A DNA stretch of 55,840 nucleotides from Candidatus Woesearchaeota archaeon (GTDB lineage: Archaea > Nanobdellota > Nanobdellia > SCGC-AAA011-G17 > JACQNH01). Below are positions 8,381 to 32,223 of the stretch, piece after piece (the first letter of the stretch is position 1; every line of letters begins with the position of its first letter). The stretch is from the NCBI GenBank assembly GCA_023246445.1, contig JAHFIJ010000003.1:1-55840 (forward strand). Direction: 5' to 3'. A program made the translations under genes and the position numbers. The notes beneath the pieces were generated by a model, which was not told where the DNA came from, ran no database searches, and was given only the letters and a program-made list of their open reading frames with translations.

Positions 8381-8884
8381 TTAATTGTTTTGTATTGGGG
8401 TTATTTCAACATAGACTTTATCTTCTGTTGCTTTTGTTTCTAATGTGAATGATAAGGAACCTTTAGTTGCAATACATAAAGGGTTTATTGAAGGTTCTAA
8501 ATTTTTAACTAAGAATCTTGTTGCTTTAAATGAGGTTAATGGGAGAAAATAAAGGTTGTAATTAGAGTTTTGGATTAAAGGCTTTAAAGATTGATCTGGC
8601 AATTGCCCTGTTATTGGGGATTTAGATTTAACAAAGCAGGCATAATTTACCTTATTTGAGACCCTAATGGAGCTATCAAATTTAAATTGTTTTTTTGATC
8701 CTGGCTCTAAAGTATAGTAAAAATCTACTTTTTCCCTTAGGCTTTCAACTGCTTTTGCCAGCGCTGCTTCATCCACTGTCTTTGTTAGCTTTTGAATTGC
8801 AGAGAAACCAAATGCTAATATTAAAGCTGCGGCTATAATACCAAAAAGATAAATAAATGGCAATGAAAATAATTGTCCTTTCAT
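8381..8884 (-). CDS. Class III signal-peptide (pilin-like) protein
   Basis: MKG/QLFSLPFIYLFGIIAAALILAFG. Confidence 0.75.
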   Translation of the reverse strand: MKGQLFSLPFIYLFGIIAAALILAFGFSAIQKLTKTVDEAALAKAVESLREKVDFYYTLEPGSKKQFKFDSSIRVSNKVNYACFVKSKSPITGQLPDQSLKPLIQNSNYNLYFLPLTSFKATRFLVKNLEPSINPLCIATKGSLSFTLETKATEDKVYVEITPIQNN

Positions 8885-9079: not shown

Positions 9080-9694
9080 TCATTCAAAAGTGCAGATTTC
9101 TTTCATTGTGTAATCTACTTTTTCTTTATTTAAAAATTCAATTAATTTTAACTGGTTTTCTTTTGGGATTATGAGAATATTAGAACTTAACTTACTTCCA
9201 TTAACATCTTTAATTAAACCATGCTCTTTATAGCCTCTTTCTTTTCTTCCATATAAAAACCTAATTAAATGAAGATATTTCTTTTTGTCTTTTGGTAACT
9301 GGAAAATAAACAAAACCTTACGTTCTGCTGATTCAAATTCTATCTTTTTTGAATATAAAAGCAAACCTTCTGAGTAAATACTTGTTTTTAACTGCCATTC
9401 TTTTATATTACCAACCTGAACTGAAATTGGATAAGTAAATTTCAATAACTGCCATTTTTCATAATCTTTAGATCTGTAAAATCTTGATAAGGCTGATTTT
9501 ACAATGTTTTCCACTTCTCTTTCATTTTTACAATCAATAAAAAGGTCTATATCGCTGTCTTTTGTTAAATCCCCCCTGACTGCTGAGCCAAATAGGTGAA
9601 TGCTGTTAATATGGCTGTCAATATTCGGGTCTAAAAAAATAAAGCTTATAGCATTTTGCATATAAGCTATAGATTTTAATGTTTGCTTATTCAA
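9080..9694 (-). CDS. Minimal nucleotidyltransferase (MNT) with C-terminal extra domain
   Basis: LFGSAVRG...SDIDLFI motif. Confidence 0.85.
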   Translation of the reverse strand: MNKQTLKSIAYMQNAISFIFLDPNIDSHINSIHLFGSAVRGDLTKDSDIDLFIDCKNEREVENIVKSALSRFYRSKDYEKWQLLKFTYPISVQVGNIKEWQLKTSIYSEGLLLYSKKIEFESAERKVLFIFQLPKDKKKYLHLIRFLYGRKERGYKEHGLIKDVNGSKLSSNILIIPKENQLKLIEFLNKEKVDYTMKEICTFE

Positions 9695-10118
9695 TTTCTT
9701 TACCTATTTCCTTAAGTTTATTTTTTATAATTAAATATAATTTTTGAAAAGAAGATAAAACTGCTTCCGTAACCTCTTTAACTGACTTCCCATAGATTAA
9801 TTTGTTCCTTTGATCTTCTATCGAATACATTAAGTTTAAGATTTCCTCTTTATCCGGGAAGTTAACTCCTAATTTTCTTTCTGCTAAAGGTGCAATCTTT
9901 TGTCCGGGTAATGGGGGTTTGAACCAGTCATGTTTTATCATTGTGCCTGTTGAAATCTTTCCTAAAGTATGGAGGTATAACTCCAGAAGGGAGATAGAAC
10001 ATGCAGAAGTATGCAAACCAATAGTTGCAGGTCTTTTTTCTATCCCTATTGTTATAGCATCTTCTATTTCCTGTAAATGTTCTTTTATATGCTCTTTGTG
10101 AATTTGTATCGAAACCAT
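9687..10118 (-). CDS. HEPN-like protein coupled to MNT
   Basis: Helical 143 aa with EDQRNKLIYG (R-x4-Y variant); overlaps the MNT start. Confidence 0.65.
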   Translation of the reverse strand: MVSIQIHKEHIKEHLQEIEDAITIGIEKRPATIGLHTSACSISLLELYLHTLGKISTGTMIKHDWFKPPLPGQKIAPLAERKLGVNFPDKEEILNLMYSIEDQRNKLIYGKSVKEVTEAVLSSFQKLYLIIKNKLKEIGKEIE

Positions 10119-10294
10119 ATTAGGAATAAAAGTTCCAAGTATTTATAAATATTTCGGTAGAAAAGTTCCTAGTTAGATTAAAGAGCTTCCATCTCCACAA
10201 GCTTAAATTCGGACAGTTCTGTTAATGAGACTAATCATAATTAGGACTAATCCAGATTAGTATCTAAAAGTTTCTATTTTACCGAATGTTGAGT

Positions 10295-13200
10295 TTAGGC
10301 TGCAATCTTGAATTTAGCTATATTACTGAAGGTGTCTTTGCAGATAATAAATAAGGAAGAAGAGTCCATAGAAGTCTGATGATTTAGATTGTTTTTTAAC
10401 ATTTTAACCCCTTCTCCAAATGTGAAATCTACTGTTGAAGATTCACAGTCTGCATCTTCATCTATTCCAATTGTTAGTATATTTCCCTGCTTAAATATTG
10501 AGGTTAATTGTGAAGGAACTGTATCTACCTGTATTGAGAATTTGGATTGTAAGTCTATTAAATTACCAGCTGCGTCTAAACATTTAATGAAGAAGGTATA
10601 ATCTCCTTTAGGCAATATTAAATTTTGAGTGTGTTCTGTTGAATCTGTGTTCAGAAATAAAGCCATATCTGTTACTGGAACATTCTTGTCTGAGAATGCG
10701 CATTTGGCTTTTCCATTTTCTGCGCCTTCATCAGTTCTTACTTTTAATGTGATGTTTGAGGTAAATAGAGTTATATTTGCTAATGGAGATATCAAGGTTG
10801 CCTTTAATTGCCTGGCTACTCTTAAGCTGAAAGGGAATGATTCTTCATTTGTATTTCTCTTATCTTCTGGAGCTGAAGGCTGATCTTTGCATCTGAAAAA
10901 GAATTTATTTTCTCCTAAAGCCAAATTATTTAATTTTGTTTTACATTCATATAATCCCTGGAATAATGGTATTCTTGATGCTGAAGACGTAACACAAGTG
11001 AAATTATTCTGCATATTTTTGAAATCTATATCAAATTTATCCCATTTACATTCTGATGGTTCATTTAGGAATATAGATAAATCAGTTTCTGTAGTATTAA
11101 ATTGTAAAAAGGAATTGTCCTGTATTGACGTTACTTCCAAAGAAGGCGCTGTTAAATCAGGGCCTTTTTCTATATTAAATTTAATGAAATAGTCTCTTTG
11201 ATTTGAGTTTCCTTTTGCATCTGTGCATCTAGTAAATAATTCAAATCTTCCGCCGTTTGTTACTTTAATTAATTCCGCTGATGTAACTTCCTGCGGCAAG
11301 GAGAATAACATTGTATGATTAGTTTTAAATGAGGGAGAGCCGAAAAAATTTGGAGGCATGGTTTCAAATTTAACTGAATGATTTAATGATACTTTACATT
11401 GTGAAGGCTCGTTTGTTGTTATTCCTATTGAAATTGCCTGGAATGGTTTGAATTGTGGTGTAATTGTGAAGCCTTCTCCTTTTTGCTCTTGAACTTTAAA
11501 TCCTGATGGCAAAGAGTTTTCATCTGGTGTTATAATTGGAGAGGTAACGTCATTTGGATGTATATCTACACATTTTTCTTCTGTTGTTCCCTGATTTACT
11601 AACTGACAAGATTGACCCAAAGATTTGCATCTGTATTCTGAACAAACTTTTCCTGGCTGGTTGCATTTATCACAGTCTGAGTTTGAAATTATTGGAGGAG
11701 CAACCCAAGGCCTGCATTCTGCTACTAAATTATCTGTTTTTTGTTTTTTTAACATCATATCTATCGCTTGGTAGATTGTGTATGCCCACATTACTGTGTT
11801 TATGACCTGGAAAACGGTTATTCCTGTTGTGCCTTTAACCTCTACTATTGCGTCTTTTGCCGATAATATTTTTTCTTCAATTTTGCCTTTGCCTGGATTT
11901 TCTAGAACGAACGCATAATCATTATTTGACATTTTGTATATAAAACCTTTTTGATTGTTAACTAAAAAAGTTCTACTCTGTTTTATTTCCCCGGTTAAAC
12001 TAGAAAATTTAATTTTACTTAAATGCCCTGCACCTGCCAAAGTCCCGCCAGTATTTGGAAATAATGCTTGAATCCCTTTACCTAATAAAGTCCCACCCAA
12101 TGGAGAAGCACCTGCAAATGAACCTGCTGTTGTAAAGTATTTTGTATAAACTCCTGCTGCTGCAATAAATGTTAATGGAACTGCTAATCTTTTCATTAAA
12201 TCTGTAAATTCATATCTGCTGTCTTTTGTTTTGGAAGATTTTGAAAATGTTGTGAAATCTGATAAGTCTGCCAACTCCAAAGCAAATTTATTTGAGTTTT
12301 CTGAAAAGCCTTCAAATGTTGCTTTCCCTTCTATATTAAAATATGCACCACAATCGCCTATTGCCTTGCATACATTATTAGAGCCAACAATCCACTCTCT
12401 TGTTAAACAGTTGCAATTTTCCAGGCATTCATAACCGCCTGTGCCAAATACTCTGTCTATTCCACCCTTCTCATATTTAACAGAACATTTTTGCGTTGCC
12501 TGAGCGCATAAAGTTAAGCCTGCTGTCTGTGTAGTTGTTGCCTGATTAAATGCTGCCTGCGGATTTAAAGGTGATGCTAATGATGTAGAAGAACCTGCAG
12601 GGGTATTTTCAGCTAGGCCTGCTTCCCAGAATCTAATACCCGGGGAAATATGCGGAACACAAAAACCGCCGCCATCTTCCGGAGAAACTCTTAAGTCAGA
12701 TACGCCAAATGGAGCCCAGAAACAATCTCTTAATGCTAAATTATCACAGGCTTTTTTTCTACAGCATGCTATCTCTCTTTGCTTTTTTATAGCATCGCAG
12801 TCACCATCTTTACAGCCAGATATTTGAAATTTTGCAAAGTCACAGTCTGCACCACAACCACCAATTTGAATTTGATTTGCTGCATTGCAGGTTTCCCACC
12901 TATTATCACGACAAGCTGCTTCTATATATTTTCCTGAACCAGTTAAAAATAATGTCTGAAAATTATCAAAGGGTGGCTCTCCGGAATTACCCTGAACGCA
13001 AATTTCTTCACGAAAGTCTGCACATTCATCTGTAATTTCCTGGCCATCTATACAAATTTTTCTTAAATGCCTTGAGCCTACTAAATCTCTTCCAAAGCCT
13101 ACAGGACCATCATAATTACACCATGATTCGCCTGCTTTTTTCGGGCCGCCTGAAGCAGGAGATGTGGGAGATTTGAAAACATCCTGGGCTGAACAAGCAA

Positions 13201-14203
13201 TTGATTTACAAGTGAATTTTCCAAATGTAGGGGATTTATCACGAGAAGCTTCTTTGCATAGAGTTGATTTAGCAAAATCACAATTGCCACAATTAGAATC
13301 TTCCGGATTTGATAAAGAGCAGGATTGTTCTTTACTTAAAATAAAGCCATTATTAAATGAAGCTCTTTTATCTGAAGAATAAATATTTTCAGGATTGCCG
13401 CAGGAATCCAACCAATAAACTTCATCCTTATCTGATAAACAGCCTGTTGTTTTCTGCCTTGCACAGGTAGTTCCTAATACAGGATTAGAGCATAAAAAAT
13501 CCTTGTGAAATCCAACTGTAGATTTATTTACACCTGATAATGGAGAATCTGTTGTAGTAATCTCAACACCACATGATTCTCTTGTTGTAAAAACACAGGT
13601 ATTATCCGGCTTAACACAAGCACCTCTGTCTAAGGAGCGGCATTGATTTATACAAGCTAATTCTGTATTAATATTAGATAAAAATGTTGAATTAACATCT
13701 GCAAAATTTGAAGTTTCTCTTTTACATCTTGTTTGTGTAACAAAAGAACATTCATTTGATAAAACGCAGCATCCTTTAGTGCAAGGGAGAATGTTACAGT
13801 CTGCACCTTCTTTCCATGTTGAATTGGATTGAGATTCACATAGGCTTCTTGGTGTATTCTTAAAGCAATTGCCGGAGTTTTCATTAAAACAACATCCAGT
13901 CTTGCAAAAGCTGGTTTGATCACATGAAGTTGGAGCTGATAAAAATGAAGAGTCACATTCTGAAGCATTTGTGAAAACACATGATGAGCCTGTTTTGGTT
14001 TTTTGACAGCAGGATTTTTGATCTCCTGAGATAACGGTTTGTGCAGATACTGGAGAAGAGAATAAATCAATAGTTAAGAATGGTGTAAATAACAAGATTA
14101 AGATTTCAAATATAGCATAAAATTTTTTTTTAGGACAACCCTTTTTAATAAACATTAATGAAATAAAATTTCTTATTACTTCAAACGATCCAAGATATGT
14201 CAT
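10295..14203 (-). CDS. Giant Cys-rich secreted protein with central hydrophobic region and C-terminal Ig-like repeats
   Basis: Signal peptide (VSA/Q), CC-x-KTKTG and GCC repeats, GESWC..GSRH, D-x-T-x-P linkers between beta-rich domains. Confidence 0.85.
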   Translation of the reverse strand: MTYLGSFEVIRNFISLMFIKKGCPKKKFYAIFEILILLFTPFLTIDLFSSPVSAQTVISGDQKSCCQKTKTGSSCVFTNASECDSSFLSAPTSCDQTSFCKTGCCFNENSGNCFKNTPRSLCESQSNSTWKEGADCNILPCTKGCCVLSNECSFVTQTRCKRETSNFADVNSTFLSNINTELACINQCRSLDRGACVKPDNTCVFTTRESCGVEITTTDSPLSGVNKSTVGFHKDFLCSNPVLGTTCARQKTTGCLSDKDEVYWLDSCGNPENIYSSDKRASFNNGFILSKEQSCSLSNPEDSNCGNCDFAKSTLCKEASRDKSPTFGKFTCKSIACSAQDVFKSPTSPASGGPKKAGESWCNYDGPVGFGRDLVGSRHLRKICIDGQEITDECADFREEICVQGNSGEPPFDNFQTLFLTGSGKYIEAACRDNRWETCNAANQIQIGGCGADCDFAKFQISGCKDGDCDAIKKQREIACCRKKACDNLALRDCFWAPFGVSDLRVSPEDGGGFCVPHISPGIRFWEAGLAENTPAGSSTSLASPLNPQAAFNQATTTQTAGLTLCAQATQKCSVKYEKGGIDRVFGTGGYECLENCNCLTREWIVGSNNVCKAIGDCGAYFNIEGKATFEGFSENSNKFALELADLSDFTTFSKSSKTKDSRYEFTDLMKRLAVPLTFIAAAGVYTKYFTTAGSFAGASPLGGTLLGKGIQALFPNTGGTLAGAGHLSKIKFSSLTGEIKQSRTFLVNNQKGFIYKMSNNDYAFVLENPGKGKIEEKILSAKDAIVEVKGTTGITVFQVINTVMWAYTIYQAIDMMLKKQKTDNLVAECRPWVAPPIISNSDCDKCNQPGKVCSEYRCKSLGQSCQLVNQGTTEEKCVDIHPNDVTSPIITPDENSLPSGFKVQEQKGEGFTITPQFKPFQAISIGITTNEPSQCKVSLNHSVKFETMPPNFFGSPSFKTNHTMLFSLPQEVTSAELIKVTNGGRFELFTRCTDAKGNSNQRDYFIKFNIEKGPDLTAPSLEVTSIQDNSFLQFNTTETDLSIFLNEPSECKWDKFDIDFKNMQNNFTCVTSSASRIPLFQGLYECKTKLNNLALGENKFFFRCKDQPSAPEDKRNTNEESFPFSLRVARQLKATLISPLANITLFTSNITLKVRTDEGAENGKAKCAFSDKNVPVTDMALFLNTDSTEHTQNLILPKGDYTFFIKCLDAAGNLIDLQSKFSIQVDTVPSQLTSIFKQGNILTIGIDEDADCESSTVDFTFGEGVKMLKNNLNHQTSMDSSSLFIICKDTFSNIAKFKIAA

Positions 14204-14204
14204 T

Positions 14205-14981
14205 TTAACCGGGTTCTCCCTGGATAAAGAATTGGAATCTAAATGGATTATTATTTGTTTTTAAGATGTATAATTTATCCGGATAAGGTTTTTTAAGCTC
14301 AATTAAAATTTTACCTTTATGCGTTATCATATACAATAATTGCTCGAAATTACCAAACTCTGCTTCTGTATCTATAACCTGGTTTACAGCAACATCATAT
14401 AAAGAGCCTAAAGGATAATCCAAGGCTGTGGAAAAGTCCTGAACTGTTAATTGTGCACCTGATCTTGATGTTAATACAACAGGATAATTTACTTTTACCA
14501 AAACCTTGTCTTTTTCTATATTAACATCTGTTTTTAATTTTTTAGGAGTTTGTATTGAAAACCCACTGCTAAAGCCTTTACAACTTTGGACATTAACACA
14601 AGACTGCAAAGCGAAATCCAAAGCGTTTTCTAATTGCTTTTCCATTTCTTCTTTTGTCAGCATCCTATTAATACATTCATCCCTTCCAGGAATATTGTAG
14701 CATAAAACTGAAACTCTAGAGCCATTAAATAATCTGAAAGTATCTGGCGGGGTATTTAAGTAACCGCCTTGCTTTCCTATTAAATTAATATAATCCGGAG
14801 CAACTCTTCCAATACAATCGGTAATAATTTTTTGAGGGCAATCTGTTTCTTTCTGCAAATCTTCTATTTTTGGTGGAGTAATGAAAGAGGATCTTAGATA
14901 GAAGGCTATAGATAACAGAATCAATATAATTATCCCTACTGTAATTAATAGGGTAGCTTGACCCCTTTTTTTTAATATCAT
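14205..14981 (-). CDS. Class III signal-peptide protein
   Basis: KKRG/QATLLITVGIIILILL; IGKQGGY motif. Confidence 0.75.
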   Translation of the reverse strand: MILKKRGQATLLITVGIIILILLSIAFYLRSSFITPPKIEDLQKETDCPQKIITDCIGRVAPDYINLIGKQGGYLNTPPDTFRLFNGSRVSVLCYNIPGRDECINRMLTKEEMEKQLENALDFALQSCVNVQSCKGFSSGFSIQTPKKLKTDVNIEKDKVLVKVNYPVVLTSRSGAQLTVQDFSTALDYPLGSLYDVAVNQVIDTEAEFGNFEQLLYMITHKGKILIELKKPYPDKLYILKTNNNPFRFQFFIQGEPG

Positions 14982-15078
14982 AGATAAATCTTTATAAAGT
15001 AAATATATAAATATTACTGTTTGATTTTAGATATAGTATAACCCTCTGTTATATGAAATTTAATTTTCAAATCCTAGA

Positions 15079-15555
15079 ATGATAAGTAATATAAAGAACT
15101 CCGCCTTAAACAATAATATGAATGACGAACGCTTCATGAAATTAGCAATTGAACAAGCTAAAAACGCACCTTTTCCGTTTGGTTGTGTTTTAGTTAAAGA
15201 CAAGCAGATTATTTCTAGTGGAAAATCAGGTAAAACCAATAATTTTGACCCCACAGCTCATGCAGAAATTAATGCGATAAGAGATGCGTGTAAATCACTA
15301 CATTCCAAAGATTTAAATGGGGTTACTTTATATTCTACTTGTGAGCCTTGCCCTATGTGTTTTTCTGCTTCATGGTGGGCAAATATTAGTAGAATCGTCT
15401 TTGGAATTTCATTAAAAGAATCTTCAAAATTATTTGGTAAAGAAATGCTTGTTAGCACTAAATATCTTAATAGAAAAGGTGCTAATAAAATTGAAATAAA
15501 AGGCGGGGTTCTAAAAGAGGAAATCTTTAAACTATATGACAGATTTGAAAATTAA
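15079..15555 (+). CDS. Nucleoside deaminase (guanine deaminase/TadA-like); likely start at 15118
   Basis: PFGCV, DPTAHAE, CEPCPMC zinc motifs. Confidence 0.9.
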   Translation: MISNIKNSALNNNMNDERFMKLAIEQAKNAPFPFGCVLVKDKQIISSGKSGKTNNFDPTAHAEINAIRDACKSLHSKDLNGVTLYSTCEPCPMCFSASWWANISRIVFGISLKESSKLFGKEMLVSTKYLNRKGANKIEIKGGVLKEEIFKLYDRFEN

Positions 15556-15618
15556 ATTTCTCCGCTTTTTTTCTTCTGAAAAAAATACTCGACCCAATTG
15601 CATTCTCACTTCGTTCGG

Positions 15619-15712
15619 GTCGCTTAACACGTGATTTAGCGGTTCCGTCCTTGCAGTCCTTCAACCCAAATTTCCTTTATTGAAACTTCGTTAAATCCTA
15701 AAGTTAGGCGAC
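15619..15712 (+). mobile_element. Integron attC-like recombination site
   Basis: R'' GCTTAAC (15622-28), 5 nt, ATTTAGC ... GTTAAAT, 6 nt, R' GTTAGGC (15703-09); ends complementary (GTCGCTTAAC/GTTAGGCGAC). Confidence 0.7.
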
Positions 15713-15852
15713 ATATTACTCGGTGGGCTCGAAAACGATTACGAATATTTTTCTTTCAGAAAAATTATGGTGTCGGCTCGAAGTCGCTTACGTGACAGAT
15801 AGCTGAAAACCTGCGGATTTTTAGATTAGTAGACCGAAAAGCTTAAATACTA

Positions 15853-15884
15853 AAGTGAATAACATTATTCATTAAGTGAATAAC
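15853..15884 (+). promoter_or_regulatory. Putative operator of HTH-MNT/HEPN operon
   Basis: AAGTGAATAAC direct repeat (21-bp period) with an inverted partial copy between, located between TATA-like CTTAAATA and the ATG. Confidence 0.55.
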
Positions 15885-15888
15885 TAAA

Positions 15889-16509
15889 ATGAGACAAAAA
15901 ACATTATTAAAGATTATAGAACTGATGAGAACTAAACTAGACAAGGGGCTAACTATACTGGAAATTTCTAAAAAACTGAAAATTGGCTACCGACCAGCAC
16001 ATATGCATATTACCAACATGGAAAAAGAAGGGATAATAAAAATTGAAAAAGTTGGAAGTGCTAAGCAATGTTCTCTCAATTTGGGAAATGCAAATACAAG
16101 ACATCTTTTAGAAGAAGTAGATATATCAAGAAAGGAAGAGCTATATCAAAAGAACCCTAAGTTAAAAATTATAGACAAACTAATCTCAAAATTAACGGAA
16201 AAGTTCATCTCTGAAATTCATTCTATTGTTTTGTTCGGAAGTTATGCCAAAGGAACAGCAACAAACCAATCGGATATTGATATCTTGTTTATAGTAGGCA
16301 ATATTGGAGATAAAAATTTAAGAGAAGAGATAGAAAGAGAGAGTGCAAGTTATCAATATTCTCATAATATAAAAATAAGCCCCCTAATCACAAATATTAT
16401 GGAATTTCAAAAAATGCTAAAGGCGAAAGAATTAAATGTTGGAAAAGAAACAAGAGAATATGGAATATCTTTGTATGGACATGAAATATTTTGGAGGATT
16501 ATGGTATGA
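15889..16509 (+). CDS. wHTH-MNT nucleotidyltransferase antitoxin
   Basis: N-terminal HTH (LTILEISKKLKIGY), LFGSYAKG...SDIDIL. Confidence 0.85.
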   Translation: MRQKTLLKIIELMRTKLDKGLTILEISKKLKIGYRPAHMHITNMEKEGIIKIEKVGSAKQCSLNLGNANTRHLLEEVDISRKEELYQKNPKLKIIDKLISKLTEKFISEIHSIVLFGSYAKGTATNQSDIDILFIVGNIGDKNLREEIERESASYQYSHNIKISPLITNIMEFQKMLKAKELNVGKETREYGISLYGHEIFWRIMV

Positions 16510-17063
16510 AAAATAGAGGTGAAGTTTTAAGGAAGAAGATTGATAGATATTTGAGAAAAGAACAGCTTTTTCAAGATGAAGAACATAAAAAACTGGAAAA
16601 AGCTTTTTTAACAAAATCAAGAAAGAACTTTACTGTTGCTAATCTCATCTTTAAAATATCTGAACAAGAAGGCATAAGAAAATTACTTTCTCTTGCTTCT
16701 GATTTTGAAATGTATGACTGGGTGATTATCGTCTCTTATTATGCAATGTATACTTCTGCTTTATCTGCATTAGCGAAACTTGGATTTAAGTCAAAAAGCC
16801 ATGCAGCAACAATAACTGTTCTTGAGCATCATTATGTAAATGGGAGTAAAGATAATGGTAAATCTTTGGAACAAAAAGATATTCATAAATTGGTAAAAGC
16901 TTATGCTATAAGTGAACAACTTATAACAAAGTTAATTCAAACCAAAACAAAAAGAGAAACTGCTCAATATGATGCAACCCCCTCAATTACGAAAGAAAAT
17001 GCAAAAACAGCTTTACATGATTCAGAAGAATTTATTACAAAGATTGAAGAGATCTTGACTTAG
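16491..17063 (+). CDS. HEPN-domain protein (likely start 16506)
   Basis: WVIIVSYYAMY, KSH, KRETAQY motifs; ATGA overlap with MNT. Confidence 0.8.
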   Translation: MEDYGMKNRGEVLRKKIDRYLRKEQLFQDEEHKKLEKAFLTKSRKNFTVANLIFKISEQEGIRKLLSLASDFEMYDWVIIVSYYAMYTSALSALAKLGFKSKSHAATITVLEHHYVNGSKDNGKSLEQKDIHKLVKAYAISEQLITKLIQTKTKRETAQYDATPSITKENAKTALHDSEEFITKIEEILT

Positions 17064-17485
17064 GTAGTGGCCTCTTTCCACAGTAACTCGAAATAATTTC
17101 TATAAGAATCTGCCACTTCCTTGCTTATGATTAAAGTAGCAATTGGAGTTTCGCTCCAAACAATAATCGCGGTTTTATCATCATAAATAAAAGTGGTTGT
17201 AGGAGAAGAAAACTCATCTTTAAAATATCTGAATTTTGTAAAAGCAATTTTTACTTGTTCTGTATTCTTTGAACTTTTAGATAAAATTACTCTTGCATCA
17301 ATCTTTAATTCTTTTTTCTGCTTTTGGAATATCTCAAAATCATGTTTCATTATCTCTAAAAATCTCCCTGATGAGCCAAAAGCAACATATTCTTTATAGT
17401 TCAGAATATCTTGGAGTATTGATTTTATACCTTTTCTGCCTCTAAATATATCAGATTCTTCCTTTTCTTTTGATTCTTTAAACAC
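17060..17485 (-). pseudogene. C-terminal fragment of TrmB-like transcriptional regulator
   Basis: FRGRKGIKSILQDIL...TFIYDDKTAII...YRNYFELLWK; N-terminal HTH missing. Confidence 0.7.
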
Positions 17486-17584
17486 AGAATTTAATTCAGG
17501 CAGAATTTCTTGCTTATTTTCATATTTTCAGTTAAGCAAGAACCTTTTCTTAATCGAGATGTTATGTCTAATTCAGAATTCGGC

Positions 17585-17935
17585 CTACTCTACTTTGGCA
17601 AATCCATTGAAATGAATTTTAGAATCTTCATGGTCAAATACTTCAACAACTTTATATTTCCCTTTTGTGAATGGCTCACCATCTAATAGAAAATGTGTTG
17701 CTTCCAAAATTATAATGCTCGCCAAGGGTTTTGAAAGTTGTTGATTCCCTTTTGTTTCTAATAATGGAATCTCTCCTTCAATCCAATAATTCCTTTGACC
17801 CTTCTTTAGAAATTCATGGATTTGCTCATTAACAAGATTTTCAGGAATACACTCTTCTTCTTTTCTATTTCCTTTTTTGAATTCTTCAATATTTCTTAAT
17901 GCCAAATCAGGATTGTATTCTGTTTGTATGCCCAT
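17585..17935 (-). CDS. Conserved hypothetical protein
   Basis: 116-aa ORF MGIQTEYNPDLALR...; TATA box about 24 nt upstream. Confidence 0.75.
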   Translation of the reverse strand: MGIQTEYNPDLALRNIEEFKKGNRKEEECIPENLVNEQIHEFLKKGQRNYWIEGEIPLLETKGNQQLSKPLASIIILEATHFLLDGEPFTKGKYKVVEVFDHEDSKIHFNGFAKVE

Positions 17936-17958
17936 AACCGAACAGAAAATCTTGTATT

Positions 17959-18038
17959 TATATAAATGTAATCCTTTTTTACTCTTAACTGATTGGGATA
18001 TAGTGATATTTGTTGATATTTTTTAATTTGTAATAACT
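17959..18038. repeat. 80-bp direct repeat copy 1 (about 91% identical to 19660-19740)
   Basis: TATATAAATGTAAT...ACTCTTAAC...TTGTTGATATTTTTTAATTTGTAAT. Confidence 0.9.
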
Positions 18039-18232
18039 CTATTTCTAATGTTATTTTAGACTCTTTAGTCGTTTCTTAGTTTTTACAATATTTTTGTAAT
18101 ATTTACGAATTTTTGTCAAAAATACGCAATTCATCTCAAGACCTAAAGGAATGAGATTTCTTGCTTAGAAGATCTTAAAGTTTACTTTACAGTGTAGAAA
18201 GGATTTTAAACTGTTTACACTAGTTAAATTTT

Positions 18233-18619
18233 ATGGAAGGGCAAATAAAATTTTTTTTGGAAAAATTGAAAGAGATGTCTGATCTTGGTAGTGTTAAATT
18301 TGTTTTTTTATTTGGTTCTTATGGGCAAGGAAAACAAAATAAACTATCTGATATTGACTTTGCTGTGTATTATGATGGCGAGGGTAAAGAGAGATTTAAA
18401 TTCAGATTGAAGCTTACTGCTAAATTACCTAACAATTATGACATACAGATATTCCAGGATTTACCTCTATTTGTAAGAAAGGAGGTTTTGAAGGGTAAAT
18501 TGATATATACAAGGGATTTAATTTTTGTGTATGATAAAGCCTATGAAACAATAAAGGAGTTTGATCATTTTAAGAAATATTATTATGATTATATAAGGCA
18601 CAGGAGATTAAGAATATGA
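18233..18619 (+). CDS. MNT antitoxin (type VII TA, MntA-like)
   Basis: FLFGSYGQG...SDIDFAV. Confidence 0.88.
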   Translation: MEGQIKFFLEKLKEMSDLGSVKFVFLFGSYGQGKQNKLSDIDFAVYYDGEGKERFKFRLKLTAKLPNNYDIQIFQDLPLFVRKEVLKGKLIYTRDLIFVYDKAYETIKEFDHFKKYYYDYIRHRRLRI

Positions 18620-19035
18620 GGAAGGAAATAATTGAAAGTAAGCTAGCTAAAATTACTGATAGTTTGAATGTTATAGTGGAAAATATGCCCGAGGAATATG
18701 AAGATTTTATTAAATTAGGGCTGATAAAAGAGGGCTTATATAAAAAAGTTGAATTTGCAATAGAAACTATTCTTGATATCTGTGCTGTAATAAATTCGGA
18801 TTTGGGCTTGGGGATGCCTGAAGTAGAAGATGATATCCTTGATAATTTAGAGAAAAAAAGAGTCTTGAAAAAAGAAGTAATTGCAAAAATAAGGGAAATG
18901 AAAGGGTTTAGAAATTTGCTTGTTCACAAATATGGTGATGTAGACGATAAAAAGGCATTTGATAATCTAAAAGAAGGCATAGAAGATTTTGATATAGCCA
19001 TGAAGGATATTGAGAATGTTCTTAAAAGATATTAA
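18616..19035 (+). CDS. HEPN/DUF86 RNase toxin (HepT-like)
   Basis: GFRNLLVHKY R-x4-H motif. Confidence 0.9.
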   Translation: MRKEIIESKLAKITDSLNVIVENMPEEYEDFIKLGLIKEGLYKKVEFAIETILDICAVINSDLGLGMPEVEDDILDNLEKKRVLKKEVIAKIREMKGFRNLLVHKYGDVDDKKAFDNLKEGIEDFDIAMKDIENVLKRY

Positions 19036-19093
19036 TTTGTTATAACTTTGCAAAATTGTAGATCTTATAAATAAGAGAGTTATGTATTATAGT

Positions 19094-19258
19094 ATGAGGA
19101 TGCGAGTAAAAACTGTCAAAGAAAGCGAGTATAATGAATTGAAAAAAAAGGCCGAGCTAAATGAAGACTTGTTAACTCAGTTAGTAAGTGGATTAGAAGA
19201 TATAAAGGCTGGAAGAATAAAACCTTGGAAAAGAACTACAAACCGATCTTCTTCTTAA
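19094..19258 (+). CDS. Small orphan antitoxin-like protein (54 aa, not in ORF track)
   Basis: MRMRVKTVKESEYNELKKKAELNEDLLTQLVSGLEDIKAGRIKPW...; TATA upstream; no toxin follows. Confidence 0.55.
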   Translation: MRMRVKTVKESEYNELKKKAELNEDLLTQLVSGLEDIKAGRIKPWKRTTNRSSS

Positions 19259-19324
19259 TTTCTTCTCTGTAAGAATGTGCAGGTAATTCTATTAATAGCG
19301 GCCATATTCAATTGAAAAAGAACT

Positions 19325-19639
19325 TTATTTCTTCTGATATCGATTATTATCCCGATTATAACATTTATCCATGACTTGCTTCCATGCTTCTTCAAGATTT
19401 ACCCCATTTGAGTTTGCAAGACAACATAATGTAAAAATCACGTCTGCAATTTCAGTTCCCAGTTCCTGCTCTTTTTCAGAACTTTTCTTCTTTTTTGGGC
19501 CATGTAAATGGTTAACTTCTCTCGCCAGTTCACCTATTTCTTCCATAAGTCTTGCTAAAATTTCATGAGGTTTCCAATATTGTGGCTCGAACTGGGAAGT
19601 CCATTGGTCTACTTCATCTTGCAAATTTTTTAGTGCCAT
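19325..19639 (-). CDS. MazG-like nucleotide pyrophosphohydrolase (YpjD-like)
   Basis: LMEEIGELARE...EIADV motif. Confidence 0.9.
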   Translation of the reverse strand: MALKNLQDEVDQWTSQFEPQYWKPHEILARLMEEIGELAREVNHLHGPKKKKSSEKEQELGTEIADVIFTLCCLANSNGVNLEEAWKQVMDKCYNRDNNRYQKK

Positions 19640-19659
19640 GGATAAATGAAGTTACAGGA

Positions 19660-19740
19660 TATATAAATGTAATTCCTTTTTCACTCTTAACCGATTGGAA
19701 TATAGCGATGTTTGTTGATATTTTTTAATTTGTAATTACT
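19660..19740. repeat. 80-bp direct repeat copy 2
   Basis: Matches 17959-18038; includes the last codons of the 19725..22940 gene and the MazG TATA box. Confidence 0.9.
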
Positions 19741-22700
19741 TTAATTTTCTGCATCTGATTATTGAAAATATCTGTGCATTGTATAAAATGTATTAGGTTT
19801 AAATCTACTGAGAATTGTTTTGAATTTTCAGCTATTCTAGTTGCGTTTGCGGAATTATCCTGTGCAAAGAAACAAGTTGATATTTCATTTGTGGATAAGA
19901 ATAGTTTAGTTGTTTCTTTGTAAATGCCAGTAATTAAAGGTGGTAAGGTATCTGCTTTTACTTCAAAGCTTATTATGGAAGAAGCCAAGTTATCTGCTGA
20001 ATCCCTACATTTAACAAAGAAGGTGTAGTTTCCTAAGATTAATGTTAAGGGCTGCTGTGATAATTGAGTATCTGTATTTAAAAATTCAATCATATTTTCA
20101 TAAACTGTATTCTGCTCTGAGAATCTGCAATTTGCAATACCGCTATCTGCACCCCCTTGTGTTGAAACCAATAGAGTTAAATTAGTTGCGAAAATTTCCC
20201 CTTTTGGTGTTGTGTCTGAGATTGATAAATTTTCAGTAGATATTAATGATAATTTGAAACTTTCCTGATTTGTGTTGTTTGCTAAATCCCTGCATCTGAA
20301 GAAAAAGTTATTTATTTTTTGCTTTTCTATATTTAATACAGTCTGGCATTCTGCTGATTTATAAAAAGTAAAGTTATATTCTAAAGGCAAAGCGCAGCCT
20401 AAATTATTATTTAACAGCTCAAAGTCATTATCTCTTGTATCAAATTTACAGTTTACAGGCTCTGAAACAAATAATGTTAATGGCATTGAACTGAAATCTG
20501 CATTTAGTTTTGTTCCATCTTTTAATGAAGAAGATTCAATTACTGGTGGTGTTAAGTCTGGCCCTGCCTGTGTTTCAAAATTTATTAAATATTCCCTGTT
20601 ATTCTTATTTCCTGAGGCATCCTGACATCTAATAAAAAAAGTGAAATCTTTTCCCGGCATTAGAGATAAGGTTGTATTATGCTCTTTTCTGTATATTCCG
20701 TCACCAATATTATTAGCCATTTCATCGAAGGTTTTTGTGTGAATGTCTGAAATTTTACATATAGCAAGCTCATGGGTTTTAATTCCGAATCTTATTGGTG
20801 CAAAGGGATTAATTTTGGGTGAGATTTTGAAACCAGATTCAACTGCAGCTAAAGTATAGCCTTTTGTTAAAACTTCTGAGTCTGGGGATATTAAAGGTGA
20901 GTTGGCGTCATTTGGATTAGAGTCAAAACATTTAACTTCTACTGTTCCTTCATTTACAATCTTACAATTTTGCCCTAAAGATCTGCATCTGTATTCTGAA
21001 CATTCTTTTGAAGGCTGATTGCATTTATCACAGTCTGAACCTCCTGTTGGAGCAACCCAAGGCCTGCATTCTATAATTTTCGTTGATACTAATCTATTTG
21101 TTAATAATTCTAAAATTAATTTTGTTACTGAATATGCTAAGAGAACCCAACCTACAATTTGAACTGCAAAAAGAAGATGACCTAAAAATGACTCTGCTAG
21201 TTGCGTTGCTGCTAATTCTGATGCTGCTTTCGTTCCGAGGTCTCCGAAAAGAAATGTCATGCTAGGTAAATAACCCTTTGTAAATATATGCAAAGCAATT
21301 TTAGTTACAAGTTTTTCAATCCCTAACAAAACCAAACCCGTAATTGCAGTTGCAACTGCTGATTCATCTTCCATCCAAGCCGCAAATCCAACCTGCTGTT
21401 CTGCATCTGGCGATAAAGGTTTAATATTCAAGCCTTTGGATTCTATAGAGTAATCTGTAAATGGTTGTTGAGGTAAAGTTCCTTCTGAAGATTCTGAAAA
21501 GCCTTCTGTAGTGTATTTACCAACAATATTATAATGAGCCCCGCAATCCCCTATTGAACGACAATGAGTGTTCATAGCAGTCAACCATTCATCGGTTTCA
21601 CAGATACAATTTCCCTTGCATTCCCAATCCCCAAATGGCTTTTTTTCATATAATACTTGGCAAGATGTAGATGCTGAAGAACATTCAGTGCCACCAGTAA
21701 AAGAAGAAACTTGCCTTGATTGTGTTTGGCCTAATTCCCAAAATCTAAATCCGGGCGGAACAGCGGGAATACATTTTCCATTCTCATCATCTCCTGCCCA
21801 GACACAAGTTCTTAATGAATTTTCACAGCATTTTTTATCATCCAGTATTTTTTCCTTAAAATTTGGAAAGTCTGGTTTGGCCTGATTACATGTTGTTATG
21901 CAATCAATAAAATTATTCTGCTTGCATTGTGCTTCTATATATGTTGAACCTGAGGGAAGATTAACCTCTGCATTAATACAGATTTCTTCCCTAAAATCCC
22001 TACAAGGCTCTATAATCTCTTCACCATTAACACACATATGCCTATAATGCCTTGAGCCCACTAAATCAAAACCTAATCCAGTTTTACCATCATAAGAACA
22101 CCACGATTCACCATTTTTTCTTGGAACCCCATCATTATCCATAGAAGGGGAGTCATAGGTTTTTTCGCAATTTATAGAGATACATTTAGGCTCACTATTT
22201 TTATCTGAACAAACAGTTCCTTTATTGTAATCGCAATCTTCTGCCTTGTCTTCCAAATTACCACAGGAGTCTACATAATAAACATCATCTTCAAAGCATT
22301 TTTTAGATTTTTTAGGAGTGCATTCACCACAATCATTTATAGAAGAACAAAATTTTCCAGATTCAAAATTATCTGTTACCTGACATTCATCTCTTGTAAT
22401 AAATTTGCAAGTATCCTCTGTGGAAGAAACACAGCAGCCTTTTTCCTGGGCTCTGCAGACATTAGTGCATTCTAATTCTGATGCAACTTCACGAAAATCA
22501 AATTCAAATTGATTATCCTTGAATAAAGCTTTAAAGGATTTTTTGCAATTTGCTTCTGTTCCTAGAAAACATTGAGAGCCTAGAACACAACAGCCTTGAG
22601 AACATTCATCCACTGAACAGTCTGCGGATGTTTTAAATATTTTATCCGGATCCTGACATGCTGCCTGAGGAGTATTTTTAAAACAATTAGATGAGGTTTT

Positions 22701-22940
22701 ATCTATGCAACAACCTAACTGACAATAAGTGGCTTTGTCACATGTATTTTTTAAATTTTGAGATCTTACATTTAAATCGCAATTTGACTCTTCAGTATAC
22801 AAACAAGTTTCTCCTGTTTTTGTTTTTTCACAGCAGGCTTGTTGAGCTGAAACCTGAGAAGAAAAATTAATAACAGAAAATATAGAGGTTAATATTATAG
22901 TGATTAGGAATAATGCTTTTGATTTAATAAGCTTAGTCAT
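19725..22940 (-). CDS. Giant Cys-rich secreted protein, paralog of 10295..14203
   Basis: Same motifs: CCEKTKTG, GESWC, GSRH, IGDCGA, CRPWVAP, GPDLTPP. Confidence 0.85.
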   Translation of the reverse strand: MTKLIKSKALFLITIILTSIFSVINFSSQVSAQQACCEKTKTGETCLYTEESNCDLNVRSQNLKNTCDKATYCQLGCCIDKTSSNCFKNTPQAACQDPDKIFKTSADCSVDECSQGCCVLGSQCFLGTEANCKKSFKALFKDNQFEFDFREVASELECTNVCRAQEKGCCVSSTEDTCKFITRDECQVTDNFESGKFCSSINDCGECTPKKSKKCFEDDVYYVDSCGNLEDKAEDCDYNKGTVCSDKNSEPKCISINCEKTYDSPSMDNDGVPRKNGESWCSYDGKTGLGFDLVGSRHYRHMCVNGEEIIEPCRDFREEICINAEVNLPSGSTYIEAQCKQNNFIDCITTCNQAKPDFPNFKEKILDDKKCCENSLRTCVWAGDDENGKCIPAVPPGFRFWELGQTQSRQVSSFTGGTECSSASTSCQVLYEKKPFGDWECKGNCICETDEWLTAMNTHCRSIGDCGAHYNIVGKYTTEGFSESSEGTLPQQPFTDYSIESKGLNIKPLSPDAEQQVGFAAWMEDESAVATAITGLVLLGIEKLVTKIALHIFTKGYLPSMTFLFGDLGTKAASELAATQLAESFLGHLLFAVQIVGWVLLAYSVTKLILELLTNRLVSTKIIECRPWVAPTGGSDCDKCNQPSKECSEYRCRSLGQNCKIVNEGTVEVKCFDSNPNDANSPLISPDSEVLTKGYTLAAVESGFKISPKINPFAPIRFGIKTHELAICKISDIHTKTFDEMANNIGDGIYRKEHNTTLSLMPGKDFTFFIRCQDASGNKNNREYLINFETQAGPDLTPPVIESSSLKDGTKLNADFSSMPLTLFVSEPVNCKFDTRDNDFELLNNNLGCALPLEYNFTFYKSAECQTVLNIEKQKINNFFFRCRDLANNTNQESFKLSLISTENLSISDTTPKGEIFATNLTLLVSTQGGADSGIANCRFSEQNTVYENMIEFLNTDTQLSQQPLTLILGNYTFFVKCRDSADNLASSIISFEVKADTLPPLITGIYKETTKLFLSTNEISTCFFAQDNSANATRIAENSKQFSVDLNLIHFIQCTDIFNNQMQKIKVITN

Positions 22941-23081
22941 TTTTAACCCCTTTTTAATTAGAAAAGTAAGTAAAAGCAGTATATAAATATGTTTTTGTTC
23001 TAATGATCAGAATAAAAAGCATTAAATTTTTAGATATTGTATTTAAGTGATTTATTTTTAATGAAGATTTTAACAAGAAAA

Positions 23082-32222: not shown

Positions 32223-32223
32223 T

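Follow-up and report, generated by a model that had tools for sequence, protein, structure and literature searches.

In groundwater and sediments, Woesearchaeota and Pacearchaeota rank with the most abundant archaea that have not been cultured; they are thought to be host-dependent, and to our knowledge nothing is known about how they attach to their hosts. The stretch of DNA analysed here (the window, 55,840 nucleotides), from a tiny groundwater archaeon, encodes two large Cys-rich paralogs, P0001 and P0002, which an earlier reading of the sequence (the original prediction) had likened to TraN, the adhesin of F-type T4SSs, and had described as contact proteins that a DPANN symbiont may use to dock on host cells. 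The locus raises the question of what surface structure these two proteins belong to, and whether a role in cell contact can be argued for them.

The longer paralog, P0001 (LONG; 10295..14203, minus strand), contains 1302 aa with 71 Cys, and the shorter one, P0002 (SHORT; 19725..22940, minus strand), contains 1071 aa with 66 Cys, for which the earlier label "giant" was generous. BLASTP aligned the two proteins end to end with 435/1287 identities (34%), 18% gaps and E = 0.0. As had been predicted, they were collinear except between the IGDCGA motif (residues 615-620 of P0001 and 463-468 of P0002) and the ECRPWVAP motif (residues 829-836 and 624-631, respectively). The other quoted motifs were all found: VMWAYTIYQAIDMML in P0001, GWVLLAYSVTKLILELL in P0002, and CSEYRCKSLGQSC in P0001, the counterpart of which in P0002 is CSEYRCRSLGQNC. 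The architecture of both proteins is the same and all parts lie on the minus strand. A Sec-type signal peptide is followed by a Cys-rich head, or N-domain, of 430-560 aa (residues 57-620 of P0001, 12344..14035; residues 33-468 of P0002, 21537..22844), a Cys-free middle segment (residues 621-829, 11717..12343; residues 469-624, 21069..21536), a Cys knot (residues 830-878, 11570..11716; residues 625-671, 20928..21068) and a C-terminal array of Ig-like domains (10298..11569; 19728..20927). The two ranges that had been reported as divergent lie inside the middle segments, and the Cys cluster described behind them is the conserved knot, which is the best conserved part of the family and has seven invariant or nearly invariant Cys. 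By their appearance, P0001 and P0002 look like secreted, surface-located proteins.

Pfam and NCBIfam searches with P0001 and P0002 gave only sub-threshold Ig-like matches, those of P0001 being weak matches to Big_13, DUF4625 and Y_Y_Y. For some homologs, precomputed annotation lists PF19077, PF15418 or PF07495. These families of bacterial and archaeal surface proteins resemble the C-terminal 400 aa in being tandem Ig-like domains, but they cover the C-terminal third only, and the head, hairpin and knot have no counterpart in them. The AF2 model of P0002 had a pLDDT of 84.4 and an all-beta C-terminal array, and Foldseek against the PDB with the whole model returned solely tandem Ig/FN3 chains, from this array. 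The head was modelled confidently and showed no significant fold match. With residues 33-690, no PDB chain reached E <= 1e-3 in Foldseek, RANK (0.17) and fibronectin type I modules coming closest, and in the VIA-wide search none of 48161 chains reached Z >= 5, the highest values being those of Avr3/SIX1 (4.5), Fusexin1 (4.3) and FnI fingers (about 4). The viral library fold search gave no match at E <= 1e-3, and a profile search of PDB sequences based on the family alignment gave nothing below E 0.9. We make no claim of a new fold for the head, because a 658-residue model was searched and single domains can be missed in this way.

The TraN likeness was not borne out by these comparisons. Neither P0001 nor P0002 matched the TraN family (PF06986) at E <= 1 in Pfam hmmscan. 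When the 87-sequence family profile was aligned by hhalign with 12 F-type TraN sequences, the probability was 0.18% with E 0.33 over 17 columns, the TraN profile being shallow since its sequences are 74-90% identical to the first one. TraN was absent from the listed Foldseek PDB and VIA-wide matches of residues 33-690, which does not by itself exclude an unlisted family. The window context agreed with these results, as a scan of its 57 ORFs found no tra, T4SS or conjugation families. Bindosome-like substrate binding was also considered and rejected, no binding-protein domain having been found in P0001, P0002 or the window ORFs.

The middle segment contains no Cys in either protein, although the Cys density outside it would lead one to expect 13.6 (P0001) and 11.3 (P0002). 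Its Gly plus Ala content was 18.2% versus 12.3% for the rest of P0001 and 16.7% versus 9.9% for that of P0002, indicating that the enrichment described as "Gly/Ala-rich" exists and is moderate only. Across 87 family members, the Cys density was 0.3% in the middle versus 6.6% elsewhere, and the Gly plus Ala content was 24% versus 12.3%. The length of the middle ranged from 99 to 296 aa across the family, with a CV of 0.20 versus 0.04 in the C-terminal part, and its column entropy was higher (2.6-3.05 versus 1.76-2.2 bits). In the P0002 model, the middle comprises a linker, a first helix assigned to residues 519-553 (helical from 526 in the AF2 model), a low-confidence loop (554-585, pLDDT < 50) and a second helix (586-613). 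In P0001, it comprises a weakly hydrophobic helix 1 (about 671-692), a hypervariable loop (about 693-793) and a conserved, polar-hydrophobic helix 2 (794-820). Among orthologs with flanks that are 67-89% identical (head 78-89%), identity fell to 23-45% in the loop, where gaps were numerous, and was 46-91% in the helices. The middle segment is thus predicted to be a helical hairpin with two conserved helices and hypervariability confined to the loop that joins them. The hypervariability that had been proposed for this region holds for the loop, but the specificity module proposed with it is not supported, the loop being Cys-free, low in complexity and placed between conserved helices.

The unannotated family to which P0001 and P0002 belong is very large and comes from Woesearchaeota/Pacearchaeota-type (Nanobdellota) archaea. 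Of 7494 candidates, 130 were family proteins at E <= 1e-3; those with a name are all called "hypothetical", and the named relatives come from Woesearchaeota, Pacearchaeota or "archaeon". With 2483 cluster representatives at E <= 1e-30, the family is among the largest unannotated ones found for these organisms. Stretches encoding relatives numbered at least 722 in species genomes, and the 62 loci that were kept all come from Woesearchaeota/Pacearchaeota/Nanoarchaeia-type MAGs. Matches were present in 56/58 other genomes of the same order, so that the cluster is near-universal, occurring in nearly every searched genome of the order. These relatives, together with the PCNA, TFS and S-layer genes of the window, are in agreement with the DPANN-type organism that had been predicted. 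A search of the full-text literature found no description of the Cys-rich family.

Comparison of the loci revealed a conserved gene order, namely SHORT, pilin-like A, LONG, pilin-like B, C, D and E, and an S-layer gene. A pilin-like A homolog was found in 49/62 loci and stood directly after 24/41 full-length SHORT ORFs, and a large paralog followed within two ORFs in the case of 42/50 A genes. The complete order through the S-layer gene was seen in L042, L057, L046, L032, L037 and others, and the S-layer gene closes the cluster in 11/62 loci, where enough flank was available. In the window, the cluster genes lie closely spaced on a single strand as far as the S-layer gene (3060..5846, minus strand; S_layer_C, E 4.8e-13), the last in the conserved order.

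The five small proteins of the cluster, all encoded on the minus strand, share a charged N-terminal motif followed by a hydrophobic helix. The class III pattern consists of a short charged leader with a [KR][GA] cleavage motif and about 20 hydrophobic residues behind it. Pilin-like A (P0121; 14205..14981, 258 aa) has KRGQ before the helix and four conserved Cys, and its stop codon lies 1 nt ahead of the P0001 start; the two upstream neighbours (258 and 223 aa) were not paralogs in sequence comparison. Pilin-like B (8381..8884, 167 aa) has MKGQ, pilin-like C (7352..8344, 330 aa) has KKGD, and pilin-like D (6775..7368) and E (6151..6774) both have KRKVAQ. The last two have 197 and 207 aa, respectively, as listed; the real start of D is probably further in, and the 5' part of E contains a 48-bp tandem repeat. 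When we applied our own rule for prepilin-type N-termini ([KR][GA][QDEST] followed by an uncharged hydrophobic stretch), 47/54 A, 11/18 B, 7/14 C, 12/13 D and 5/5 E proteins were positive, versus 13/725 other ORFs of the same loci; the D and E proteins of the window, with K-V-A-Q, fail the strict rule. Within family A, Q8 is invariant and K5 nearly so. Pfam gave no match for the five proteins of the window or for 46 family A members, NCBIfam nothing above cut-off for the five and the S-layer protein, and the PDB profile search nothing below E 0.3, while ESM Atlas returned only Nanobdellota clusters without name or model. It is from the N-terminal pattern that the five small proteins are read as putative pilins.

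The same genome encodes an A24 prepilin peptidase (PF01478, 37.9 bits), T2SSE ATPases (PF00437) at three loci and three T2SSF matches (PF00482), two of which are adjacent platform ORFs near an ATPase on contig 19. These genes suggest that the class III prepilin-type N-termini of the five small proteins may be cut by the A24 peptidase, and that the proteins may be handled by a type IV filament core composed of the ATPase and the two platform genes, which is encoded on another contig.

We then examined a predicted complex between the small and the large proteins. Complex prediction with pilin-like A (residues 36-258) and P0001 (residues 57-625 plus 826-1030) gave an ipSAE of 0.82, and the best control gave 0.20. 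The ipSAE mark is reached by 116/157 solved complexes and by 2/215 mismatched pairs, figures that are a rough guide here (own alignments, three chains), and the score is the model's confidence and not a measurement. The runs agreed in at least 92% of contacts, with a partner pLDDT of at least 84. The predicted interface, with a docking surface on the LONG head that includes residues 63-136, 381-399 and others, is centred on a conserved FKNTP loop of the head and a conserved C-x-N-R-M stretch of pilin-like A. With Cys excluded, conservation of the LONG head was 0.52 at the interface versus 0.38 in the rest; for pilin-like A it was 0.49 versus 0.47, i.e. no higher. Based on these results, pilin-like A is predicted to sit on the LONG N-domain, and the pair forms a concrete, testable complex.

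Sets of pilin-like proteins with large partners have precedents. In the fimU-pilVWXY1E operon of bacterial type IVa pili and in GspH-K of the T2SS, four to five pilin-like proteins of unequal size share their locus with a large Sec-secreted non-pilin protein, which binds them. The present cluster resembles these systems in having a pilin-like set and a large secreted protein, with A-LONG binding predicted. However, the sequence and fold searches gave no match to PilY1 or to the bacterial minor pilins, PilY1 has no membrane hairpin, and two large paralogs, not one, are present here. PilY is also mentioned in PMC4858521 and PMC13705601.

A closer comparison is offered by the clade 1 or system 1 module, i.e. 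the Epd pilus loci of Methanococcales, Methanobacteriales and Thermococcales, for which a model (Makarova, Koonin and Albers 2016; PMC4858521) and a survey (PMC13705601) are available. As described in PMC4858521, clade 1 loci combine an ATPase and two TadC genes with no fewer than five minor-pilin-like proteins and with two large DUF2341 proteins, the latter being proposed tip adhesins. First, at least five proteins that have class III signal peptides without being major pilins occur with two large secreted proteins in one locus, as in the present cluster. Second, the core consists of one ATPase and two platform genes, to which the two adjacent T2SSF ORFs near an ATPase correspond here. Third, PMC13705601 reports system 1 pilins in 1990 Nanobdellati genomes, scattered apart from the ATPase and platform genes, as are the putative pilins here. 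Finally, components of this type often have several conserved cysteines. In contrast, P0001 and P0002 lack DUF2341 and carry a Cys-rich head for which no fold match was found, a membrane hairpin in mid-chain and a Cys knot, the cluster is tied to an S-layer gene, and the five small proteins match no pilin family model. DUF2341 (PF10102) had no match at E <= 1 in P0001 or P0002, nor any in the whole 91%-complete genome, and because of this absence we claim no homology to the clade 1 large proteins.

We suggest, with a belief evenly balanced between acceptance and rejection, that P0001, P0002 and the pilin-like set are a DPANN version of the proposed module of at least five minor pilins and two adhesin-like large proteins, in which the large subunits are of a new type, and form a short pilin-based adhesion or contact structure. 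LONG and SHORT would be the two large subunits of this conserved cell-surface gene cluster, pilin-like A would clamp the LONG head, and the short surface structure would probably expose the Cys-rich heads, serving adhesion or cell contact. A cell-contact role of the large proteins is possible because of their pilin-like partners and not because of any TraN likeness. The mid-chain membrane hairpin does not fit a tip adhesin, which must exit the membrane with the filament. If the suggestion is correct, the type IV filament design of minor pilins plus a large adhesin would be shared by DPANN archaea, in a form that has a new disulfide-rich head, and the proteins to seek in cryo-tomograms and metaproteomes are named.

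In the proposed topology, the Cys-free hairpin would anchor each large subunit in the membrane of the cell that makes it, with both large parts outside, the seven-Cys knot lying right at the membrane and the Ig-like array following it. The Cys content of 6-7% on either side of the Cys-free middle counts in favour of this arrangement. In another family within the class, the gene is split at the middle segment: the N-terminal half has a signal peptide and the head without an anchor, and the C-terminal half, with a signal peptide of its own, contains a stretch of extracellular appearance (LysM-like motif, Cys pairs, Pro/Thr linker) together with two hydrophobic helices, the knot and the Ig array. 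We rejected a single membrane pass with a cytoplasmic C-terminal part in view of these split forms, the Ig array and the conserved Cys pairs. Most simply, the hairpin loop would lie within or beneath the membrane of the cell itself. Support from the positive-inside rule for placing both knot and head outside is not clear, as the loop lacks any charged residue in many SHORT-clade members and the number of Lys and Arg per residue was highest after helix 2 (0.133) and was 0.055 in the loop. SHORT hairpins reached Kyte-Doolittle values of up to 3.6, whereas LONG hairpins reached 2.0 at most or had no segment. Since the LONG-clade helices are weakly hydrophobic (<H> 0.45-0.55, and no Kyte-Doolittle segment >= 1.6 in P0001), membrane insertion of the LONG hairpin is not certain.

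A static envelope scaffold is a doubtful reading that nevertheless deserves weight. Here, the hairpin-anchored pair and five N-terminally anchored proteins would be pillars or a base plate below the S-layer that organise the lattice, without a filament or adhesion. The S-layer gene at the cluster end fits such a role equally well, as does the packing on one strand in the window, and both large proteins combine a membrane hairpin with an Ig-like array of sufficient length to bridge the space under the S-layer. The near-universal occurrence in the order is as expected for a core envelope part. According to PMC13705601, S-layer-like Ig-rich proteins also occur in archaeal type IV filament loci, where wall priming was suggested. 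However, five distinct prepilin-type proteins in fixed order and of minor-pilin-like sizes are more than an anchor needs, no search gave similarity to known S-layer anchors, and the SHORT gene tolerates a shift of 5 kb without loss, as in this genome.

It is unlikely, in our estimation, that the cluster is a host-attachment apparatus of Woesearchaeales-type DPANN with a pilin stalk through the S-layer, two disulfide-rich heads, a weakly hydrophobic, Gly/Ala-rich LONG hairpin acting as a latent host-membrane-inserting element, and a fast-changing loop that is exposed and relevant to insertion. Highly unlikely is a host-membrane-inserting device in which SHORT anchors in the symbiont and the LONG hairpin is shielded until it inserts on contact, like a fusion peptide or a pore-forming hairpin. 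The systematic hydrophobicity difference between the clades would suit this device, as would the conserved polar residues of LONG helix 2 (N, T, W, Y, T, Y and D), the many SHORT loops that are uncharged Ala/Gly/Ser/Thr runs, and the genome size of 883 kb, which is typical of host-dependent DPANN archaea. The row for archaeal Fusexin1 (VIA Z 4.3, rmsd 2.8, 51 residues; model 223-309 versus 7p4l_A 455-508) is a weak lead, but it is tied with unrelated rows and within the stated noise of the search tool, and none of the Foldseek PDB, viral library and VIA-wide searches gave a significant fusogen or pore-former match. Moreover, the hairpin adjoins the best conserved juxtamembrane knot, the split forms keep it with the anchored half, and the Eisenberg values of LONG helix 2 suit an ordinary helix of a multimeric membrane bundle. 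A TraN-like mating-pair stabiliser, homologous or analogous to the F-type T4SS adhesin, is hardly tenable and close to refuted by the evidence of profile, context and organism: the resemblance is a general one (both are Cys-rich and secreted, and F TraN has an Ala-rich, i.e. small-residue-rich, stretch before its Cys-rich region), the segment concerned models as a hairpin with a loop that is not conserved, and TraN is an outer-membrane protein of diderm bacteria, unlike these proteins of an archaeon with an S-layer and archaeal markers, so that domain of life, envelope and gene context all differ.

Some further features of the locus were observed. In a metatranscriptome of the same sample, contigs fell on the S-layer gene only, which says nothing on the other genes; RNA records listed none for the large genes. 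A promoter and terminator scan gave 59 sites versus 65 expected, its models being bacterial and uninformative for an archaeon. The cluster takes up about 1% of the genome. Between SHORT and pilin-like A, an insertion (14982..19724) encodes a deaminase, two nucleotidyltransferase/HEPN-type pairs, MazG and two unknown proteins. A nucleotidyltransferase and its 143-aa partner (9080..10118, minus strand) are inserted between LONG and pilin-like B, and the same insertion is present in the close relative L066.

LONG (P0001) and SHORT (P0002), the two Cys-rich surface paralogs, are encoded on the minus strand at 10295-14203 (1302 amino acids, 71 cysteines) and 19725-22940 (1071 amino acids, 66 cysteines), respectively. 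They align from end to end with 435 identities in 1287 positions (34%, E = 0.0), and the part that does not align is bounded by the GDCG and C-x-P-W motifs. This middle comprises residues 621-829 of LONG (nt 11717-12343, minus strand) and residues 469-624 of SHORT (nt 21069-21536, minus strand). It contains no cysteines, while 13.6 and 11.3 would be expected from the density of the remainder of LONG and SHORT, respectively. The two collinear paralogs with differing middles of the original prediction were thus confirmed as real ORFs, and the motifs quoted there were all found in the two proteins. The middle had also been described as Gly/Ala-rich, which holds in part: Gly and Ala are enriched in both copies (18.2% vs 12.3% in the remainder of LONG, and 16.7% vs 9.9% in SHORT), but only moderately, and the enrichment is stronger across the 87 sequences of the family (24% vs 12.3% elsewhere).

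We then compared the middle among relatives. In three close SHORT orthologs (68-76% identical), both helices are kept and the differences lie in the intervening loop, which carries about 60 additional Ala, Gly, Thr and Ser residues in one of them. Two elements are conserved in the LONG clade (26 sequences), namely a modest first hydrophobic stretch and a second helix. The second helix is well conserved, its polar residues N, T, W, Y, T, Y and D are fixed, and it is followed by K-T-E and then by the C-x-P-W motif. Between the two elements lie 100-170 unalignable residues of low complexity. Among close orthologs, the identity of LONG is 78-89% in the head (the Cys-rich N-domain), 80-85% in the knot (the Cys cluster after the hairpin) and the C-terminal Ig array, 56-91% in the helices, and 23-45% in the gap-rich loop. 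The corresponding values of SHORT are 77-82% in the head, and 28% and 43% in the loop. Family-wide, the column entropy is lowest in the knot (1.76 bits), which is the most conserved part, and the helices and the loop are the least conserved (2.6-3.05 bits, occupancy 0.53-0.60). Based on the ortholog identities and the per-site entropy, the proposed variable core is a real hot spot of variability, but this hot spot is the loop of a helical hairpin.

The AlphaFold2 model of SHORT, for which the family alignment was supplied, is confident, with a mean pLDDT of 84.4 and a pTM of 0.57. It opens with a signal-peptide helix, after which the beta-rich, Cys-rich head extends to about residue 483. Two long helices follow (526-553 and 586-613), separated by a loop of pLDDT below 50; next are a strand and a small Cys-rich unit, and from about residue 690 onwards the chain forms an all-beta array. 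When the whole model was searched against the PDB with Foldseek, it matched solely tandem Ig/FN3 chains, in agreement with weak Pfam matches to Big_13, DUF4625 and Y_Y_Y. When residues 33-690 were modelled on their own (pLDDT 84.1), Foldseek retrieved nothing at E <= 1e-3 from the PDB or from a viral library, and none of 48161 representative chains reached Z >= 5. The top rows were small disulfide-rich modules (Avr3/SIX1 at Z 4.5 and fibronectin type I fingers at about 4), and a 51-residue stretch of archaeal Fusexin1 scored Z 4.3; all of these values are within noise by the tool's own account. Since the best Z values are within noise, we restrict our claim to a head for which no known fold was found.

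Homology with TraN, the Cys-rich protein of F-type T4SS to which the paralogs had been likened, is unsupported. Neither paralog matched the Pfam TraN model at E <= 1. When a profile of traN of plasmid F and its relatives (twelve aligned) was compared with the 87-sequence family profile, the probability was 0.18% (E 0.33) over 17 columns, where the TraN profile is shallow (74-90% identity) and the Pfam model is not. A sequence search of the family profile against solved structures found none (best E 0.96), and the window contains no conjugation genes.

A run of minus-strand genes extends from 14981 down to 3060. It starts with pilin-like A (P0121, 258 amino acids), whose stop lies 1 nt ahead of the start of LONG, and continues with LONG itself, a nucleotidyltransferase pair (9080-10118; also present between LONG and pilin-like B in the close relative L066), the overlapping or abutting genes of pilin-like B, C, D and E (167, 330, 197 and 207 amino acids), and an S-layer gene at its end. 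Homologs were found in 49 of 62 related loci for A, and in 15, 14, 12, 4 and 11 for B, C, D, E and the S-layer protein, respectively, the lower counts being in part due to short flanks. The usual order in relatives is SHORT, A, LONG, B, C, D, E, S-layer; A directly follows SHORT in 24 of 41 full-length SHORT ORFs, and a large paralog lies at most two ORFs after A in 42 of 50 A genes. SHORT and A, adjacent in most relatives, are parted in the window by a 4.7-kb block (14982-19724) encoding a cytidine deaminase, an HTH-nucleotidyltransferase and HEPN pair, a nucleotidyltransferase and HepT pair, MazG and two unknown ORFs. Further nucleotidyltransferase/HEPN-type pairs lie at 41820-42723 and 42767-43342, and such toxin-antitoxin-like pairs are unusually many in the window.

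A short basic leader, a [KR][GA] motif and a hydrophobic stretch form the class III (prepilin) signal peptide pattern of archaea. All five small families carry a short basic leader, [KR][GA]Q or a near variant, and then about 20 hydrophobic residues. Scored by our own rule, the prepilin-type N-terminus was found in 47/54 A, 11/18 B, 7/14 C, 12/13 D and 5/5 E sequences, compared with 13 of 725 other ORFs. Pilin family models of Pfam and NCBIfam matched none of the five proteins, nor did a PDB profile search for family A. The other parts of such a machinery are encoded in the genome, namely an A24 prepilin peptidase, three T2SSE ATPases, and T2SSF platform matches; two of these matches fall in neighbouring ORFs of contig 19, with an ATPase a few kb away. 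In the 5' part of the pilin-like E ORF, at 6586-6745, 3.3 copies of a 48-bp tandem repeat (99% matches) encode a repeated 16-residue leader before a KRKVAQ motif; hence the annotated start of E is probably too far upstream, or the length of the leader is variable. The S-layer gene is partly covered, within 3838-5429, by metatranscriptome contigs from the same sample (three of four at >= 99%) and is the only gene covered within 3050-23000, a record of presence rather than a ranking of expression. Nine kb off the cluster, glycosyltransferase genes and genes for membrane proteins (GT2, PMT_2-like and EpsG-like) lie in a row at 31575-38512, and their products might glycosylate surface proteins.

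This composition resembles known archaeal type IV filament modules. In the model of Makarova et al. 2016 (PMC4858521), where the class III pattern is also found, clade 1 loci encode an ATPase and two TadC proteins, together with small major pilins that stand alone and at least five class III proteins resembling minor pilins. Two large DUF2341 proteins complete these loci, and a role as tip adhesins is proposed for them by analogy with PilY. In a 2026 survey (PMC13705601), system 1 pilins are reported in 1990 Nanobdellati genomes, with ATPase and platform genes close together and pilins scattered, and Ig-rich, S-layer-like accessory proteins are noted. The cluster likewise combines five class III proteins with two large secreted proteins, and a two-platform core is present elsewhere in this genome. 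Unlike the clade 1 proteins, LONG and SHORT carry the Cys-rich head, the hairpin and the knot instead of DUF2341, which was found neither in them nor in the whole 91%-complete genome. Since the composition is alike but DUF2341 is absent, we suggest by analogy that the cluster may work like a clade 1 / system 1 module, and we claim no membership of these protein families.

We predicted a complex of pilin-like A (residues 36-258, without its helix) with the LONG head (57-625) and the LONG knot and first Ig domain (826-1030), supplying family alignments. The ipSAE was 0.82 in three runs (0.81-0.82), compared with 0.20 for the best control. Of 157 solved complexes, 116 reached this value, as did 2 of 215 mismatched pairs; these counts apply here only roughly, since the alignments were our own and the prediction involved three chains. 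The runs shared at least 92% of their contacts, and the partner pLDDT was at least 84. A profile search of the PDB found no solved relatives of A or LONG, and no similar solved complex is known. The predicted interface is formed chiefly by the head (residues 63-136, 381-399 and others) with few knot contacts, and the closest contacts are between the FKNTP loop of the head and a C-x-N-R-M stretch of A. Residues of these stretches recur among relatives (in the head, N116 in 43/55 and P118 in 42/55 sequences; in A, N105 in 42/46 and R106 in 38/46). With Cys excluded, interface residues of the head are more conserved than the remainder (0.52 vs 0.38), while those of A are not (0.49 vs 0.47). The modelling supports a putative binding of pilin-like A to the LONG head.

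There are 57 invariant columns in the family alignment, mostly Cys; invariant cysteines are abundant on both sides of the middle, and each paralog begins with a Sec-type signal peptide. In the simplest topology, the two large parts lie outside the cell and the membrane is crossed an even number of times. This putative arrangement is supported by naturally split forms. In one family of the class (loci L072-L076; genomes G249, G250, G106, G281 and G085), the second large paralog is encoded by two genes. The N-half (545-617 amino acids) has a signal peptide and the head, has no hydrophobic anchor, and terminates 15-55 residues past GDCG; binding of LONG by A, if true, would account for its retention on the cell. 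The C-half (680-879 amino acids) starts with a signal peptide of its own, and the next 150-330 residues look extracellular; the pieces gained here include a LysM-like motif (L072) and Cys pairs together with a Pro/Thr linker (L075). Two hydrophobic helices come next, and the knot and Ig array complete the protein. The loop is entirely without charged residues in many members of the SHORT clade, and K/R density peaks directly after helix 2 (0.133 vs 0.055 in the loop), which counts against a cytoplasmic loop since it is contrary to the positive-inside rule. A further point against this topology is the weak hydrophobicity of the LONG helices: in P0001, no window of 19 residues reaches a Kyte-Doolittle value of 1.6, and its helix 2 has an <H> of 0.45-0.55 with a low hydrophobic moment, values that would fit a helix of a multimeric bundle. 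With these points against it, insertion of the LONG hairpin in the membrane is an inference.

As our best explanation, to which we give about an even chance, we propose that the cluster encodes a surface complex of DPANN archaea associated with pilins. The two paralogs would be its disulfide-rich display subunits, anchored by the hairpin, and the variable segment would be the hairpin loop, free of constraint. A purely structural role beneath the S-layer seems distinctly less probable, and we consider insertion of the LONG hairpin into a host membrane very improbable. The cluster is of real interest to DPANN cell biology, although its general design is already in print.

The family is widespread among related archaea. 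Among the 7494 candidates of a word-indexed search, 130 were relatives at E <= 1e-3, and wherever the source gave a name, it was 'hypothetical protein' from Woesearchaeota, Pacearchaeota or 'archaeon'. In an exhaustive profile search, cluster representatives numbered 8942 at E <= 1e-3, 4462 at 1e-10 and 2483 at 1e-30, and relative-encoding stretches in species-representative genomes came to at least 722. All 62 loci kept are from MAGs of Woesearchaeota, Pacearchaeota, Nanoarchaeota or Nanoarchaeia. In a phylum sample, 175 of 301 genomes, a count that takes in one unpublished genome (G243) used for no other result, had a match at E <= 1e-10, as did 56 of the 58 other genomes of the window's own order; many weaker matches outside the order cover the profile partially and may be due to the Ig-like or central domains only. 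In a tree, 87 members fell into three clades, SHORT (with P0002), LONG (with P0001) and a more distant third. A full-text literature search found no description of this Cys-rich family.

The window (GC about 31%) is archaeal, with genes for PCNA, a TFS/RpoM-type zinc ribbon protein, an S-layer protein with S_layer_C, and aRF1. The assembly (46 contigs, 883 kb in total) has a completeness of 91%, and P0001 and P0002 are the sole paralogs in it. A 196-aa ORF at 47510-48100 matches the C-terminal part alone of the IS66 transposase model and is probably a transposase remnant. Finally, the tRNA-Phe (GAA) gene at 53052-53138 (87 nt) matches the full 71-position Rfam model across 85 nt and may contain an insertion or a small intron.
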